A stretch of 64,000 bases of DNA, from IMG/VR virus record IMGVR_UViG_3300021387_000147; one strand, given 5' to 3'. The notes under the pieces were generated by a model. It did no database searches. It worked only from the letters and a program-made list of their open reading frames with translations, and was not told the origin of the DNA. Position numbers and translations under genes: made by a program. Of the stretch, positions 18,565-59,587 are shown in pieces. This DNA comes from a virus (Duplodnaviria > Caudoviricetes). Within the stretch, counting starts at the first letter, position 1. Each line of letters starts with the position of its first letter.

Positions 18565-20493
18565 TTATTGATGTCCGCTAACTACAAAAAATAATGAACC
18601 TTTACCATCACATGCACCGCCATTAACTAAGTTAGTTATTTCAGTATCACCATTAACTACAAATAATTGTTGTGCATTCCAACCAGTATGACCTTCTTTA
18701 TAATTTACAGCTGATATTGCAGAACTATTATTACCATCTGTATACTTTATCAAATTTGTATTTGCATTTATTTCTAATTGTGATTTATTTACAAAATTCT
18801 GTTGATTAACCCAAGATTCTGCTTGATTCAAAGCATTAGCACTAGCATCATTAGCGTAGGTCTTAGTAGCATATTCAGCAGGAACAGCAGTTAGGTAATG
18901 TTTGTTTTCAACCCATGTCTCAGCTTCACTTAAAGCATTAGCACTTGCTGCTTCAACATCAGTTTTTAAAGCATAAGTATTAGGAATAGAAGTTAAATAA
19001 CCTTGTTGTCCTACCCATGTCTGAGCTTGACTTAATGCAGCCGCACTAGCTTCATTTGCATATGTTTTTGTTGCATAGTCAGTTAAATCTGTATTCTTTA
19101 AAAATCCTTGTTCTCCAACCCAATCATGTGTAGCAATTACTTCAGTATTAACACCATAAGGTGAATTTTGAGTACCTTCACCACTAATTGTATTTGGTGT
19201 ATCAAAAACATAACTTGCACCAGTTCCATCAATACCATTTCTTACATCAAATGTTAATGGATGTTCTGCATCATGTGTAGCATCAGTAATTATTACTGTT
19301 GTTCCACCTGGAGTTCCAGGAATTGCTGAATATGAAATAGATGGAGAAACACCATTTGAACCAGGTTCACCTGATACACCACTCATAACATCAATTGATT
19401 CTGTAGAAGGAGTTCCACCATCATCATAAGTAAATGTGACTCTATTACCGCCAGGAATTGCAGATGTTGAAACAGTTGGTGAAATACCATCTTTACCATT
19501 ATCACCATCTAATACAGTAAATGAATCTGTATGTGTTGCATCTGTAATTGATACTGTATGTTGACCTGTGACTGTGTCATCAATTGTTATAATTGGTGAG
19601 AAACCACTTGCACCAGTATCACCTTTAGTGCCGGCATCACCCTTATCACCTTTATCACCTTTTTCACCAGATACACCTTGAGGACCTATTGGGCCTTGTG
19701 GACCAGTTGGACCTTGTGGACCAGTTGGACCTTGTGGACCTCTAGGACCTTCAGGACCTACAGAACCTGCAATACTACTAATATAGATATTATTTAATTT
19801 ATATCTACCTTGTGCTGATTCACCCTTAACTAAGAATTTTAAAGTAGTAGGTACTTCTTTTAAATTAATAATACCAGTTATCCATTCTGACTGCACATCT
19901 ATTTTCTGTGGATTACTTGTAGTATCTTTAATTAAACTATCATCAAATAAAATAAATGTTTGATATAAAGCATCATCAATACTTGTGCTTTTTGAAATAG
20001 CAATATCTAATTTGTTATTGATACTACTCTGTGTAGGTTCATATAATACTTCAATTTTAACATCATAGATACCAGCTGGAATAGTAAGACTCTCAGATAA
20101 TGCGCCAGCTTCATGATTAAAATCAGCTGCAGTTTCTGTATATGTAGCTAATACAGAATCATACTCATTCTGTTTAAATAATGACCATAAAGAATCATCA
20201 CTTGTACTAGATGATTCTATTGGCTGATATGTAACATTAAGACTACCATCAGCATTTTGTTCAATAGTTTGAATAGTCTGGTTTGGTTCACATGACCATG
20301 CAGATGGAGTAATTTCTGGAGTAAAATGTTCCATTGCGGCAGAAACACTTTCAATTGCTTCTGCCAATGTTTTATCATTTTCATTAAATTTCTGTACTGT
20401 ATTTGAATTTAGCCAATTACCATCAGCTACAGTATTTCTACTCCATTGTTTACCAGCATTACTTACAATTTTTCCTACTAAACTTTCAGCCAT
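18565..20493 (-). CDS. Collagen-like tail fibre protein
   Basis: Gly-X-Y run ([12 protein letters not shown]...GDKGDK), three G-x-SP repeats and three ~35-aa YA.KT...AS..AL..A..WV repeats. Confidence 0.85.
19611..19770 (-). repeat. Collagen-coding tandem repeats
   Basis: 18-bp unit ccttgtggaccagttgga twice in tandem and 9-bp GDK units. Confidence 0.8.
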
Positions 20494-26356: not shown

Positions 26357-26388
26357 GAATATGGAGGAACACTCCATATTCTTTTTTT
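26357..26388 (+). terminator. Rho-independent terminator
   Basis: GAATATGGAG-gaaca-CTCCATATTC-T7. Confidence 0.75.
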
Positions 26389-26399
26389 ATAAATATAGT

Positions 26400-26807
26400 A
26401 TGCTAACATTAGATAAAAACTCAGATTTTAAACGAATTGAAACTTCCAAGGTCCAATCCAATTATTATGATTTGGATGTTAATATAGTAGATACAGAAGT
26501 ATGGTCTTTTGATGCATTAGACCAAGCTATCGAAAATGTTCTATTAACAAATAAAGGCGAACGCATTTTCAATTATTCTTTTGGAACTCCTTTAATAGAA
26601 CTCTTATTTGAAAATGATGTAAATACAGATTATATCGTTGATAAAGCCTTGGATGTTATAGAAACATGGGTTCCAATAAAAATCATTAGAAGTAAAACAC
26701 AATTACAAAGAGATAAAGAAAACCATGCAATTTCATTCTTTATCTACTATAATTCTAATGACGGAATGATTAGAGACCACTGTTTTGCTAGACGCCTAAG
26801 AAAATAA
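26400..26807 (+). CDS. Baseplate wedge subunit (T4 gp25-like)
   Basis: QAIENVLLTNKGERIFNYSFGT...LLFE; true start MLTLDK at 26400 after terminator and late box. Confidence 0.85.
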   Translation: MLTLDKNSDFKRIETSKVQSNYYDLDVNIVDTEVWSFDALDQAIENVLLTNKGERIFNYSFGTPLIELLFENDVNTDYIVDKALDVIETWVPIKIIRSKTQLQRDKENHAISFFIYYNSNDGMIRDHCFARRLRK

Positions 26808-26884
26808 GAATCTTTTTACTAAGGTCCATTTTACAACTAAATGGATCTTTTTTATATTAACTGCAAAAATCGAGAGATTTATTT

Positions 26885-27420
26885 TATAAATAATAATAAA
26901 ATGGTAAAAGAGAATAGCATATAAATAGCAAATTTTTAGCAACTTTTCTTTTTTCGCAGATTTTTAAGCACATACATAAGCAAATTATCTCTTTTACCTT
27001 AGGTTGATGACTATACCATCTGTTATGTTATTTCAGAAAAATAGTTACCATAGAAGAGGTTTTTTGTAATACGAATCCTTACAAACTATTTTATAAAGTT
27101 TATTTTTATAAAGAGAAAAGGATCCTCGGCTCAACCCAATGAGTTTTAGGTGAAGTGGACCCCAGAAGAAATTCTGAATATAATAACACAAAAGAACAGC
27201 AAGTGTTCAGTGATAAAAGTTTAACGAGCTTTTTATACGCCGTCTTGAGTATTTTTGAATAGTTAAGTCCTTGTACAGGAAGACCACCAGGGTAAAGTCA
27301 AAATGTAAATCTCCTTATACGTGAGAGTCCGATATACTGAAAAGTATTATCCCCATGTTCTATAAGTCTAAAATAGGCTTATAGTTTCAAGGTCCTCTAC
27401 CTGAAAAAATAGTTATCCTA
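26885..27420 (+). ncRNA. Candidate long structured non-coding RNA (or origin transcript)
   Basis: No ORF of 60 aa or more in 26808-27543; TATAAATA at 26885; many stems including 26903-26913/26988-26998. Confidence 0.45.
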
Positions 27421-33867: not shown

Positions 33868-33945
33868 TTGTTTATCTCCTATAAATAAATTATTTTTTAA
33901 TTTACTTATTATATTTATATAATTAACCAATTATTTTTTGCAAAA

Positions 33946-35003: not shown

Positions 35004-35078
35004 AAAAAAAGCTCATTGGTTTTCGCGTCCAATGAGCCCGAGAATAGCATTTTCTCTATAGCAATTTAGCAATTTAGC
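35004..35078 (-). ncRNA. Candidate ~75-nt late small RNA with UGCUA repeats
   Basis: TATAAATA at 35083-35090, GCTCATTGG/CCAATGAGC terminator 35011-35037 plus T7, no gene-sized ORF; scaffold has its own late box at 34971-34978. Confidence 0.5.
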
Positions 35079-35115
35079 AATATATTTATAACTTTCGTTT
35101 TGTCACTTTTTGCAA

Positions 35116-35709
35116 TTAGTTTTCAGTTGGGACTACTTCGAATGATGAATAAGAGAATGTAACTGAACGTTGAATCTTACCATCATCTTCCATACCCAAG
35201 TCTACTGAAGATACAGTCTTTGGCCATACTCTATATAGACGCCATTCAACTGGTAGTTTTCTCTTTAAAGTAGAATCGAACAAAACAATCTTCATAGTAC
35301 CACAGTAATCTTTAGCATAATTACTCATAGCACCACCAGTCAAGTTTCCGTTTGCTACGTCAATATCATCACGGAAGCCATGGTTAAAGATTAAGTTCTG
35401 CCAATGGTGGAAAGCTGTAGATACCCATAGGTCTTGGAATTCATCGAAGTTGACAGTTACGTCACCTGCAACGTTTGCCTTACCTGGATAAATTAGCTTT
35501 GAACCCATATATTCAGTAGTCATATCAGTAAATTCCTTCTGAGGAATTGTGACAGTCTTTGCTCTGAACATAAATGGCTGTTGACCAACCATATCTTGTA
35601 ATTGCTGTGATTCGAATTCGATTACAACCTGGAATAGATACTTCTTTGCTAAGTCAGGAAGGTTAGCAATTTCGGTTGTAAATACGCTCATATTATTTTC
35701 TACTGGCAT
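35116..35709 (-). CDS. Tail tube protein (T4 gp19-like)
   Basis: LAKKYLFQV, FRAKTVTIP, YMGSKLIYPG, VWPKTVSSVDL, VTFSY. Confidence 0.9.
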   Translation of the reverse strand: MPVENNMSVFTTEIANLPDLAKKYLFQVVIEFESQQLQDMVGQQPFMFRAKTVTIPQKEFTDMTTEYMGSKLIYPGKANVAGDVTVNFDEFQDLWVSTAFHHWQNLIFNHGFRDDIDVANGNLTGGAMSNYAKDYCGTMKIVLFDSTLKRKLPVEWRLYRVWPKTVSSVDLGMEDDGKIQRSVTFSYSSFEVVPTEN

Positions 35710-44094: not shown

Positions 44095-44643
44095 ATGGCA
44101 GGTGTGACAACTGAGATTAACAATTATAATAAGAACAAATGGATATGTAGATTTTCCAACATGGTAGACTTTACTGACCTTGAATTAGATACTACTGTCC
44201 TTGATAACTATATTCGAACAGTCAATATTCCTGATTTGTCAGTAAATATGTTGACTTCAGAATTCCAACATGAAAGACAATTGCATCCAGATCCACGTGG
44301 TGCTCGTGATTTACAGACCATCAATATGGAATTTAAGATGGATGAAGAAGGTAAAAACTTCTATTATTTCTGGTGTTGGCTAATGAGCATGAGAGCAGGT
44401 AAACCAATTGGAAAAAAGACAGCTCTTGGTGAAAAGCTGTTGAGAATGGACTGTATCGATGCTATAGAAGTTTGTCTATTAAATAACGACAAAGTAATGG
44501 TTTCAAAGATGAAATTCTGGCACTGTATACCTACTAACTTGTCAGCATTGAGTCTAGAAACTGGTCAGGCACAAGAAGCTACATTCATAGTCACATTCGA
44601 TTATGAAAACATGACGCTTCAACCTGTCACTTCTGAAGAATAA
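44095..44643 (+). CDS. Tail-tube-fold protein (gp3 tube terminator-like)
   Basis: VNIPDLS, EFKMDEE..NF...WCWL, FWHCIPTNLSAL, VTFDYE. Confidence 0.75.
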   Translation: MAGVTTEINNYNKNKWICRFSNMVDFTDLELDTTVLDNYIRTVNIPDLSVNMLTSEFQHERQLHPDPRGARDLQTINMEFKMDEEGKNFYYFWCWLMSMRAGKPIGKKTALGEKLLRMDCIDAIEVCLLNNDKVMVSKMKFWHCIPTNLSALSLETGQAQEATFIVTFDYENMTLQPVTSEE

Positions 44644-44671
44644 AAAAAGAGAGACTTTCGTCTCTCTTTTT
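44642..44671. terminator. Bidirectional terminator
   Basis: A7-GAGAGAC-tttc-GTCTCTC-T5 between convergent genes. Confidence 0.85.
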
Positions 44672-44709
44672 CTTTAACATATATTGAATTATCTATGATG
44701 ACATTTTAT

Positions 44710-45354
44710 TTATAATGCGAAGATTTGCGCAGCCTTCTGGATTTTCGCTTCCTTAACAGCAAGCGTATCATTAGTTCCATAAATCTTCAAGCAGAATGCA
44801 AGCCACTTTTCAAAAGCAGTAGAATTCATTGCATCGAACTGAGTGTCCTTCACATCATGCACCTGGATGCCATGACGGAGGAATGCTTTAAGGCGGCGAT
44901 AGAATTTGTCAGTATCACAAATAGCCTTCAACTGATTCTTAGCAGCGCGAACAGGGTCCTTCTTTGTGACGCATGTGTCAGCTCTGAGTTCATCTTTAGA
45001 GTCAGGCGTATGATTGTCGTATCGCTTAGCAAAATCGACCAGGAAGCGCTTCTGTGCTTCATCCATGACGTCTTCATCATTAATATCAAGGCGTTCATTA
45101 CGACCATCAGCACCCTGCACCCAAGCAAACTTCTTACCAATTCCAGAAATTTCAAAGGCCTTCAAATAAGCAGGGAACTTTTCCCACTTAGTACCGAAAA
45201 TATCATCATTACCGGCTTGATACCATATCTGGCGAATTAGATCTGCAGCGCAAACTACGCCTTTTTCCTTCAAGAATTTTGCAAAGTCTTCCTCTGTAAA
45301 GCGTTCGCCATCGAACAGAGTTTCCATTTTTCGATTAAGTTCATTAAAAGTCAT
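44710..45354 (-). CDS. Hypothetical early protein
   Basis: 214 aa, AGGAG RBS, visibly more GC-rich codons. Confidence 0.75.
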   Translation of the reverse strand: MTFNELNRKMETLFDGERFTEEDFAKFLKEKGVVCAADLIRQIWYQAGNDDIFGTKWEKFPAYLKAFEISGIGKKFAWVQGADGRNERLDINDEDVMDEAQKRFLVDFAKRYDNHTPDSKDELRADTCVTKKDPVRAAKNQLKAICDTDKFYRRLKAFLRHGIQVHDVKDTQFDAMNSTAFEKWLAFCLKIYGTNDTLAVKEAKIQKAAQIFAL

Positions 45355-56732: not shown

Positions 56733-56762
56733 GAGTATAACAATTATTTGTGAGGTGAAAAT

Positions 56763-57551
56763 ATGAAATCAGAAAAATTAGATTTAAATAGTGTTAATCA
56801 ATCAGACTTTAGTGCTGTTGCAAAAGCAGTAGAAAACAGTCTACCAAAAGACGCTATTTTATTAGACAAACATTTATTGCCATCTCGTGGTAGATATTAT
56901 ACAGAAGACATTTATGTTAAGAAGTTATCAACTTTGAACATTAAGAATTTGTCTACTATCAATGAGAAGAATGCAAATTATATCATCAATTCAACAATTT
57001 CATCTTGTGTATTGAATATCGATACAAATAAGATTTTGGTTGGAGATAAGCTATGGTTTATCTTCTATCTAAGAGCATTGACTTATGATGATCTACCATT
57101 CCAGATTAAGCATAAATGTGAACACTGTGAAAATACAGTAAATCTAGAATTCACTCTAAAAAATCTTAAGGTCGATTATCTTGATAAAGACGTTCCTTCT
57201 GAATTTATTACAGAAGCAGGCGACAAGATTAAAACTCGTTTCCCAACAATTGGTATGGAAGCTGTCACAAACCGTATGAAGAACGGCCAGGATAGTTATG
57301 AAACATTCAATGAAGATTTGTTGGAATTCGCAGTAAATATCGAATCAGTAAATGGAAAGAGAATGGATATTTACAATGCATATCAGTATGTAGCAAATAT
57401 GGACGCTAAGAGTTTCTCTAAGCTAGTAAATGATATGACAAATTATATGTTTACAGTTCGTCCTTATGCTGAATTTGTATGTCCAGATTGTAAGGAAACA
57501 GTTGCTGAAAAGGTACCTTTCTCTCCTTCATTCTTCTTACCTAAGCTATAA
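56763..57551 (+). CDS. Baseplate hub assembly protein (T4 gp26-like)
   Basis: LPSRGRYY, LVGDKLWFIFYLRALTY, CEHC, RFPT, CPDC, FFLP. Confidence 0.85.
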   Translation: MKSEKLDLNSVNQSDFSAVAKAVENSLPKDAILLDKHLLPSRGRYYTEDIYVKKLSTLNIKNLSTINEKNANYIINSTISSCVLNIDTNKILVGDKLWFIFYLRALTYDDLPFQIKHKCEHCENTVNLEFTLKNLKVDYLDKDVPSEFITEAGDKIKTRFPTIGMEAVTNRMKNGQDSYETFNEDLLEFAVNIESVNGKRMDIYNAYQYVANMDAKSFSKLVNDMTNYMFTVRPYAEFVCPDCKETVAEKVPFSPSFFLPKL

Positions 57552-57558
57552 ATAGAGT

Positions 57559-57990
57559 ATGAATTTAGTTGAATACGTACAAAATCTTGCAAGTAAATCT
57601 ACAAATGATCAGTTAGAAAACTTGGTTTTTAAAAAAGTCAAGTTAACTGAATCTGTAGGTTTTATAGAAATAATGAAAACAATCAATCCACAAAAGTGGA
57701 CTGCAAGAATTATTCAGGAAGAAAAATACTTATTTTTTAATAATAAATTTCTAAATGTTAGTAAATTTAAACAAGAGATAGATAAGATTTATTCTGAAAA
57801 TGGATATTCAAATTTTGGTTTTGCCAAGATTCCTGCAGAGGATTTGGTTCGTTATAAGAAGATTAAAGATTTGATAATGCCAACATTTTATGATGTCATG
57901 ACAGATGAAATTGATCCTTCTATAGTTGCTAAGATTTTGTATGATAATGAATATAAAGAATTTGATTGGCAACCTGAGGAGGTGCAATGA
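57559..57990 (+). CDS. Hypothetical late protein
   Basis: 143 aa; MNLVEY...KLTE; late box 4 nt upstream. Confidence 0.65.
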   Translation: MNLVEYVQNLASKSTNDQLENLVFKKVKLTESVGFIEIMKTINPQKWTARIIQEEKYLFFNNKFLNVSKFKQEIDKIYSENGYSNFGFAKIPAEDLVRYKKIKDLIMPTFYDVMTDEIDPSIVAKILYDNEYKEFDWQPEEVQ

Positions 57991-58391
57991 ACGAAACATC
58001 TAAATTGTTAGAAATCCGTTTATTAGTCGATCAAAAAGTAATTGAAGAAACTCTTACTAGAATTGGTATTGTTGATAAAAAGAAAAATATAATTTATCAA
58101 TCATGCCACTTATTAAAACATTTTGATACATTTTTCTTAGCACATTTTAAACAGTTGTTTGTTCTAAGTACTGACAAAAATGGTTATCCAGGATTTGGAA
58201 ATGTATCATTAGAAGATATTCAGAGAAGAAATTCTATTGCTTTTCTACTAATGAAATGGAATATGATTACAATAGTTAATCCATCTGAAATTGAACCACA
58301 TACAACAAAAATTGAAGTAGTTCCATATAAAGATAAAAAGAAATATCAACTTGTTAAAAAGTTTAATACTGAAAATTTAAATAATTTTTAA
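57987..58391 (+). CDS. regA: Translational repressor RegA
   Basis: ETLTRIGI...YQSCHLL...HFKQLF...DIQRRNSIAFLLMKW. Confidence 0.9.
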   Translation: MNETSKLLEIRLLVDQKVIEETLTRIGIVDKKKNIIYQSCHLLKHFDTFFLAHFKQLFVLSTDKNGYPGFGNVSLEDIQRRNSIAFLLMKWNMITIVNPSEIEPHTTKIEVVPYKDKKKYQLVKKFNTENLNNF

Positions 58392-58417
58392 TTTATATTA
58401 TTGTGAGGTGAAATTAA

Positions 58418-59587
58418 ATGCTTAATGCTAGAAATGACAAATCTCTTGTCATTATCATAGTGAGAGACCATTCTGGTTGTTCTCATGTTAGATTAAGATG
58501 GAACGCAATGTATTATAATGGTTTTGACCAAATTGGATTTACTCCAATTATTACGCCACAACCTATTTTTGATGCAACTATCTTAAAACAAACAAAAGCA
58601 ATTATCTATCAGCGTCCAATCGGTGACCAAGATATTGCTGTCCTTCAGGAATATAAAATACATCAAAAGAAATTTGGTTATAAAATAGTTTTCGAATGTG
58701 ATGACCAAATTTTTGATATTGATGGTGAAGGTCTTCCTGAATATAATATGGCATCTGAAGGTTTTAATAAAGATATACAAGGTATCAATGAAAGAGTTGC
58801 TAAAGCAGTTTCTCTTTGTGATGAAATTGTAGTCTCTACTGATTATTTAAAAGATGCATTCATTAAAAAATTCAATTGTCAGAATATCAGAGTAATTCGT
58901 AATGTAGTTCCACGCTTCTTGTGGTCCTATCCACGTAAACCTCATATTACTGAAGATCTTAAAAAGCCAAAGATAATCTATACAGGTTCTCCATGTCACT
59001 ATAGAAATCCATGTCCTCCAAAAGTCGATAGAGATCATCCAGATGGAATTCTTGCAGACTTAGGTGACTTTGATTGTGCATGGAAAGACTGGATAATTAA
59101 AATGGTCAAAGAAGATAAAATTGAATTTACTGTAGTTGGCTCTCAACCTTATTTCTTTGCAGAAATTGCAAATAAGATTAAACAACTACCTTGGAAAGAT
59201 ACTACATCCTATCCAAGACAAGTTTTAGAAGAACATGCTGATTTTGCAATTGCTCCAATTGTAGAAAATCAATTCAATAAATGTAAGTCTTCTCTAAGAT
59301 TTATTGAAGCATGTGCAGCAGGTTCTCTTCTTCTTGGAACAGTCTTCAAAGACAATAAATTCTCGCCTTATGAAGATATTGCAGATCCTTGTAAGTTCTA
59401 TCCAGACGTCACCATGAACGAAATAGATGAACGTTTCTGGGCATTATGTAAGAAAGATAATTATAATTCTATTCTTGATTGGCAATATGACCAATTAAAT
59501 AATAATGGCTGGTGGATGGAATCTACAAAACATGCTGACGAATGGATGTCAATGATTGATGGAAATCCAAATGAAAAATTTATTTAA
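58418..59587 (+). CDS. Glycosyltransferase (GT-B fold)
   Basis: GCSHVRLRW, FECDD, VSTDYL, DFAIAPIVENQFNKCKSSLRFIEACAAG. Confidence 0.85.
   Translation: MLNARNDKSLVIIIVRDHSGCSHVRLRWNAMYYNGFDQIGFTPIITPQPIFDATILKQTKAIIYQRPIGDQDIAVLQEYKIHQKKFGYKIVFECDDQIFDIDGEGLPEYNMASEGFNKDIQGINERVAKAVSLCDEIVVSTDYLKDAFIKKFNCQNIRVIRNVVPRFLWSYPRKPHITEDLKKPKIIYTGSPCHYRNPCPPKVDRDHPDGILADLGDFDCAWKDWIIKMVKEDKIEFTVVGSQPYFFAEIANKIKQLPWKDTTSYPRQVLEEHADFAIAPIVENQFNKCKSSLRFIEACAAGSLLLGTVFKDNKFSPYEDIADPCKFYPDVTMNEIDERFWALCKKDNYNSILDWQYDQLNNNGWWMESTKHADEWMSMIDGNPNEKFI

Follow-up and report, generated by a model that had tools for sequence, protein, structure and literature searches.

The window analysed here, a 64-kb stretch of DNA with a G+C content of 31%, comes from an uncultured giant T4-like gut phage, whose relatives are IMG/VR contigs of 240-424 kb with capsid proteins of 56-78% identity. 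Between 32.5 and 38 kb the minus strand carries the genes for a tail-tube-like protein, the scaffold, a gp23-type major capsid protein (MCP) and the portal. The tail-tube-like gene (35116..35709, minus strand) encodes a protein of 197 aa that matches the tail tube family phrog_45 (E 6.5e-18) and gave no match in a Pfam search. Its stop codon (35118-35116, minus strand) lies 1 nt ahead of an intergenic module, in which the order on the minus strand is: tube stop, a TGCAAAA element, a spacer, the octamer TATAAATA, short repeats, a 5-bp hairpin and a terminator, followed by the promoter (P2), leader and coding sequence of the scaffold gene. The minus-strand elements that the original prediction had described are all present at their coordinates. 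Scans of IMG/VR and metagenomes recovered seven loci near-identical to this one, two of which are the same 25,202-nt contig, together with one more distinct relative, G003; a search of the 'phages' collection gave 0 matches.

The octamer TATAAATA occurs 26 times in the window, where 15.3 occurrences are expected, and mostly directly upstream of genes; judged from this enrichment and placement, it is the late promoter of the present phage. Its intergenic copies nearly always have a gene downstream, frequently in the arrangement TATAAATA-N4-ATG. Many late genes begin with (T/C)ATAAATA-N4-ATG (e.g., at 2288, 3352, 26388, 32037, 51617, 51620 and 57547), so that their mRNAs would be leaderless or near-leaderless, and the true start of the gene called at 26361-26807 is probably the in-frame ATG at 26400. 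The copy that belongs to the module, hereafter P1, is an intergenic T4-type late promoter octamer (35083..35090, minus strand) oriented toward the module, with the element TGCAAAA (35108..35114, minus strand) ahead of it, across a spacer of 18 nt. TGCAAAA by itself is not enriched in the window. Followed after 17-18 nt by (T/C)ATAAATA, it is found at four sites, against an expectation of 0.03, and none of 100 shuffles reached four. Besides P1, these bipartite sites are the MCP promoter (33912-33942, minus strand), the scaffold promoter P2 (34971..35002, minus strand; TGCAAAA-N18-CATAAATA), which is homologous to the scaffold promoter of G003, and the promoter of a large-RNA locus (26862..26892, plus strand), which is kept in G003. 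In this relative TGCAAAA is likewise present at the MCP, scaffold and large-RNA promoters, and in more distant ones the capsid or scaffold promoters have degenerate forms ahead of them (TGCGAAA, TACAAAA, TACGAAA); the exact bipartite pattern has a single site in five large relatives, the MCP promoter of G004.

These sites suggest, from their sequence and positions, a distinct class of late promoters with a -35-like element, which is new here and, although a side result, maybe of wider use than the small RNA discussed below. At the correct distance from P1, TGCAAAA would occur by chance with a probability of ~0.001 for this site, or 0.02 over the 23 other octamers. Because the only other promoters with this spacing are those of the capsid, the scaffold and the large RNA, P1 is probably a real and strong late promoter; the 33 nt of its region show no change among four strains. 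The spacers of the four promoters are mutually unrelated in sequence, and thus P1 is not a recent duplicate of any of the other three. Its 3' flank departs from the NNNTAT(G/A) pattern common to most late promoters here, a pattern that owes part of its conservation to leaderless start codons, and a weight matrix of the flanks, built from 20 training sites, is too noisy to judge P1. From the promoter class that they share, the two non-coding loci, the module and the large-RNA locus, are probably highly expressed. Downstream of P2, the segment 34918-34978 (minus strand) reads CATAAATA-AGAT-ATG and then a 17-codon upstream open reading frame, with a stop that overlaps the scaffold start (ATGGATAA). 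An 18-codon version is kept in G003, and more distant relatives have ATA in place of the ATG; this arrangement may reflect translational coupling or mere conservation of the promoter context.

Behind P1, the minus strand carries two TTGCTAAA units (35080-35073 and 35072-35065) and TTGCTAT (35064-58). In the RNA this stretch (35058..35080) would read as two UUGCUAAA units and UUGCUAU, and it is predicted to form a single-stranded 5' tail. It is followed by a small hairpin (35040..35056, minus strand), for which RNAfold predicts a 5-bp stem GAGAA/TTCTC and the loop AATGCTA, and which contains the 11-mer ATGCTATTCTC (35050-35040, minus strand), invariant among strains. The intrinsic terminator (35004..35039, minus strand), common to the tube mRNA, has a 9-nt loop and ends in U7. 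It had been predicted as a 9-bp stem with a T7 run; the run (35010-35004) is there, and the stem (35039-35029 / 35019-35009) is longer, with 11 pairs including two G-U in the RNAfold structure. The unit thus ends, as is characteristic of intrinsic (Rho-independent) terminators, in a G+C-rich stem-loop with a U-run directly behind it. A simple terminator scan, which allows loops of <=8 nt, missed it because of the 9-nt loop. The 36 nt of the terminator show 0 changes among the four strains. The fold of the whole predicted RNA has an energy of -19.6 kcal/mol (z -2.5) and, like a classic sRNA, consists of an unpaired 22-nt tail, the 5-bp hairpin and the terminator. The Rfam search of the module returned no match at gathering score, the best sub-threshold one having an E value of 0.14. 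A 26-codon open reading frame from the ATG of ATGCTATTCTC, which was set aside, crosses the terminator; its Shine-Dalgarno sequence is weak, and G003 lacks it.

The best reading of this arrangement, held with rather less than even confidence, is a lineage-specific late small RNA that has its terminator in common with the tube mRNA. The tail-tube gene would harbour, in its 3' untranslated region, a short late transcription unit: the capsid-class promoter P1 would fire about 5-7 nt downstream of its octamer, and RNA polymerase would halt at the tube mRNA's own intrinsic terminator. The product would be a non-coding RNA of 72-75 nt, late and probably abundant, in which repeats of the UUGCUAAA type would form an unpaired 5' tail, followed by a hairpin whose loop reads AAUGCUA and by the terminator hairpin and its U7. 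An RNA of ~75 nt ending at the tube terminator is also the likeliest product of P1. The small late RNA of the original prediction has thereby gained a rare capsid-class upstream element and a good terminator, both strain-invariant, all of this being evidence at the level of the sequence. A terminator so close to a late octamer is uncommon: in the 400 kb of G004, it lies <=130 nt after TATAAATA at 2 of 142 sites, neither of which is sRNA-like. The only other such arrangement in the window is at 44640-44714 (minus strand), where TATAAATA at 44714 overlaps the stop of gene 44710-45354 and a strong terminator (GAGAGAC/GTCTCTC plus a T-run) follows 35 nt on; it could be a second short late transcript embedded in a 3' untranslated region, or chance.

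The seven near-identical loci carry the module in three alleles, whose differences are confined to the repeat tail or an A-run and leave the 11-mer unchanged. Among four strains, divergence in the repeat segment is 4.7-9.3%, compared with 1.5-2.4% in the tube gene, which indicates that the repeat tail is drifting at a roughly neutral rate. A 20-mer of the tandem repeat has 10 matches elsewhere in viral contigs, and was dismissed as a lead, since the seven outside the lineage are unrelated microsatellite-like repeats. G003, the nearest distinct relative (tube protein 79% identical), has only a different terminator after the tube gene. A terminator directly after this gene is present in every relative examined, and in those with 61% tube identity the junction runs terminator, late promoter, another gene. 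Four distant relatives (L017, L019, L028 and L035) carry an extra late gene in the ~1.2 kb between the tube-like and scaffold genes, which is missing from the present lineage and from G003. Judged from these comparisons, genes have been gained or lost at the tube-scaffold junction.

The second non-coding locus with a capsid-class promoter lies about 8 kb away, in a 736-bp gene-free gap. Its core (27209..27317, plus strand) matches the cow-rumen-2 motif (RF02947) over model positions 1-106 of 106 with E 1.1e-8, at a sub-threshold 52.1 bits against a gathering score of 66, and G003 shares a highly conserved block with it at 27230-27400. We know of no role for the large cow-rumen-2-type RNA. The proposed pairing site (26910..26942, plus strand) is in the leader of this RNA, ~270 nt upstream of the core. 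The original prediction had noticed here a match to the reverse complement of the module, and this match is confirmed: the plus-strand 11-mer GAGAATAGCAT has exactly two occurrences in the window, at 26910 and 35040, and at 26.9 kb it is followed by ATAGCAA and then TTTAGCAA. The site also overlaps, as had been claimed, the 5' arm of a stem, since an 11-bp inverted repeat exists at 26903-26913 / 26988-26998; by a rough estimate, chance alone would give an AT-rich sequence of 64 kb about five perfect 11-bp inverted repeats spanning no more than 100 nt. A reading of 26903-26998 as a MITE or other mobile element found no support: its arms are found nowhere else, and the leader fold has a z of -0.2. 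A longer stretch of homology, reaching into the promoter, was rejected (the best match of an 80-nt query is coding sequence at ~4.2 kb and at chance level, p 0.06-0.22), and so was a sense match of the hairpin-terminator half to 27104-27150, which falls outside the top alignments and whose score is equalled by 95% of random segments.

The significance of the pairing depends on the space that is searched. Window-wide, the complementarity is at chance level: among control 43-mers, 35% of the shuffled and 46% of the random ones attain the Smith-Waterman score of 28, and the duplex energy at 26.9 kb is -27.6 kcal/mol, compared with -27.9 kcal/mol for the best non-self duplex, at 18841 (plus strand), which is probably a chance one. 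If the comparison is restricted to the pre-specified pair, a natural choice because only two non-coding units have capsid-class promoters, the best duplex between the small RNA and the 650-nt large-RNA locus has -28.3 kcal/mol. As low an energy came up in 1 of 300 shuffles of the small RNA, and in none of 191 random segments of 650 nt and none of 200 shuffles of the target; the pairwise p is about 0.003. The cofold ddG, net of unfolding costs, is -11.8 kcal/mol, and 0 of 200 shuffles reach it. Against the 74 translation-start regions of the window, the large-RNA locus has a lead of 6.5 kcal/mol, the best of these gene 5' regions having -21.8 kcal/mol (mean -11.9, sd 3.6). Once this 5'-region target space is allowed for, the estimated p is about 0.03, and because the pairing was noticed post hoc, the statistics are only suggestive.

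If the candidate RNA acts at all, trans pairing with the large-RNA leader is its most likely activity, though a doubtful one on this evidence. It may base-pair with the leader of the cow-rumen-2-type late RNA, with the loop and the exact 11-nt match as the starting point and two further helices to follow. Full pairing would total about 26 bp, with a net energy of about -12 kcal/mol, and would open the 26903/26988 stem, altering the folding, processing or stability of the large RNA. In the same terms, it is conceivable but on balance unlikely that two late promoters of capsid strength make a small antisense RNA and a large cow-rumen-2-type RNA that pair as a regulatory couple. Both parts would then have arisen together in one lineage, as both are missing in the nearest distinct relative: the large-RNA leader of G003 is ~100 nt shorter and lacks the pairing site, while its promoter and RNA core are kept. 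Module and target site are hence together present or together missing, in what amounts to one comparison. At the strain level, target-side alleles were taken from strains other than L087, L088 and L090. In one of them, G001, TTTAGCAA is changed to TTAAGCAA, and all combinations of small-RNA and target alleles give between -26 and -29 kcal/mol; with energies so alike, there is neither covariation nor disruption. Neither conservation of the pairing nor compensatory change, which the original prediction had proposed to look for in related phages, was found among the allele pairs and the two informative genomes available. Its trans RNA-RNA switch is no more than suggestive, the complementarity being significant pairwise and at chance level window-wide, with no covariation and with both partners missing in G003.

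The main rival to the small RNA is that the transcript is a by-product of a fossil promoter and slippage repeats. The segment would serve termination only, P1 being incidental or left over, for example, from a gene lost between tube and scaffold, the repeats mere slippage filler and the match at 26.9 kb a matter of chance; this is quite possible. Termination after the tube gene is what all relatives share, the nearest distinct one managing without P1 and the repeats, and the junction has been rearranged, as more distant relatives carry an extra gene there. The drift of the repeats, the occurrence of the same 20-mer tandem repeat in unrelated viral contigs, the chance level of the window-wide match and the second octamer-plus-terminator at 44714, with its overlapping stop codon, point in the same direction. 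This account leaves aside, however, the low probability of TGCAAAA at the right spacing, a P1 that is unchanged among strains and the pairwise pairing statistics. In another version of events, the scaffold and capsid genes have P1 as an additional upstream promoter and are attenuated at the terminator, so that the short RNA would be what remains of a long 5' leader after premature termination. A protein with the periodic UUGCUAAA units as its binding sites might control this step. TRAP and HutP are oligomeric attenuation proteins with periodic binding sites of this kind, which the repeats resemble. P1 belongs with the scaffold and MCP promoters in one promoter class, and P2 follows it at a distance of 112 nt. 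In six phages of Pseudomonas, one of them the jumbo phage phiKZ, ONT-cappable-seq has pointed to 29 candidate ncRNAs derived from 5' untranslated regions by premature termination (PMC10914365). Attenuation is nevertheless improbable here, and was rejected as a function of the module: the predicted fold consists of two hairpins only, with no alternative antiterminator to compete; P2 needs no help, since its CATAAATA variant is used at three other genes; and G003 expresses its scaffold gene without such a leader.

It has also been proposed that the GCTA-type repeats are protein sites, either DNA sites shared with the 26.9-kb locus, through which one regulator would act on both non-coding late units, or RNA decoys for RegA, a translational repressor, and the scan for TAGCA clusters that had been suggested was run on the 64-kb window. 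At least three TAGCA within 45 nt are found at three places only, 18837, 26915 and 35045, two of them at the proposed partners, and each of the two intergenic clusters has a capsid-class promoter no more than ~50 nt upstream. The remaining cluster (18837-18871, plus strand) is inside gene 18565-20493, on the non-coding strand. As for RegA, AAAUUGCUA is one base off the core AAAUUGUUA of the T4 RegA SELEX consensus (PMC3014915), a resemblance that is the only lead to an operator or decoy. The regA gene is encoded in the window (57987-58391; PF01818, E 5e-25), although 23 kb from the module and so not nearby, as had been thought. Protein sites of either kind are very unlikely. A sponge for RegA finds no support in the 74 start regions, in which ATTGNTA occurs at 0 and TGCTA at 2, and no single RNA-binding protein can bind both loci, because their RNA motifs are complementary, not identical. 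Sites in DNA would lie on different helix faces, given their spacing of 8 bp; the 26.9-kb cluster is missing in G003, and the claim of shared DNA sites is weakened further because the third TAGCA there is gone in G001, a strain 96% identical in this region. The genes that flank the regA block have near-identical start regions (56735-56765 and 58390-58420, plus strand), TTATT(T)GTGAGGTGAAA...ATG, which could be a common operator or merely a strong ribosome-binding site.

To our knowledge, hardly any functional small RNA has been described from a lytic phage. If the candidate small RNA is real and pairs with the leader, it would offer a handle for perturbing the large RNA. The module is also confined to one narrow lineage and its tail evolves freely, so it may be a by-product of intergenic rearrangement. 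Among known systems, the partner locus resembles cow-rumen-2 RNA (RF02947) in matching the full 106-position model, and differs from it in scoring below the gathering score and in the position of the pairing site, which is upstream of the motif, in the leader segment missing from G003. In the antisense control of ColE1, RNA I and RNA II interact by pairing that is initiated at loops. The candidate is alike in having a hairpin loop and a single-stranded tail whose complement lies in the 5' part of a longer, structured RNA and overlaps one arm of a stem; unlike ColE1, the module and its partner are trans-encoded, 8 kb apart, the duplex is imperfect, with helices of 11, 7 and 8 bp, and there is neither a replication context nor conservation.

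A 2010 review of T4 described no functionally characterised trans-acting regulatory RNA from this phage (PMC3014915). In the virulent phage PAK_P3, abundant late sRNAs of ~100 nt have been found, whose function is unknown and whose candidate phage targets are only 11-nt perfect matches (PMC4933390). The candidate RNA shares with them its short length, intergenic origin in a lytic phage, predicted late timing, unknown function and an 11-nt match to the target; the PAK_P3 sRNAs were seen experimentally, whereas the candidate is predicted from sequence, and there is no kinship between them in sequence or Rfam family. MicL and DapZ are bacterial small RNAs of the type I 3' untranslated region class, which have their own promoter and use the terminator of the upstream mRNA. 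The promoter of the module differs from theirs in being a T4-type late phage promoter with an upstream element, and the proposed target is a non-coding RNA rather than the start region of an mRNA. In its architecture, however, the candidate is of the same type, with a promoter at the end of the upstream gene, a terminator in common with it, and a predicted single-stranded seed followed by a terminator hairpin and a U-tail.
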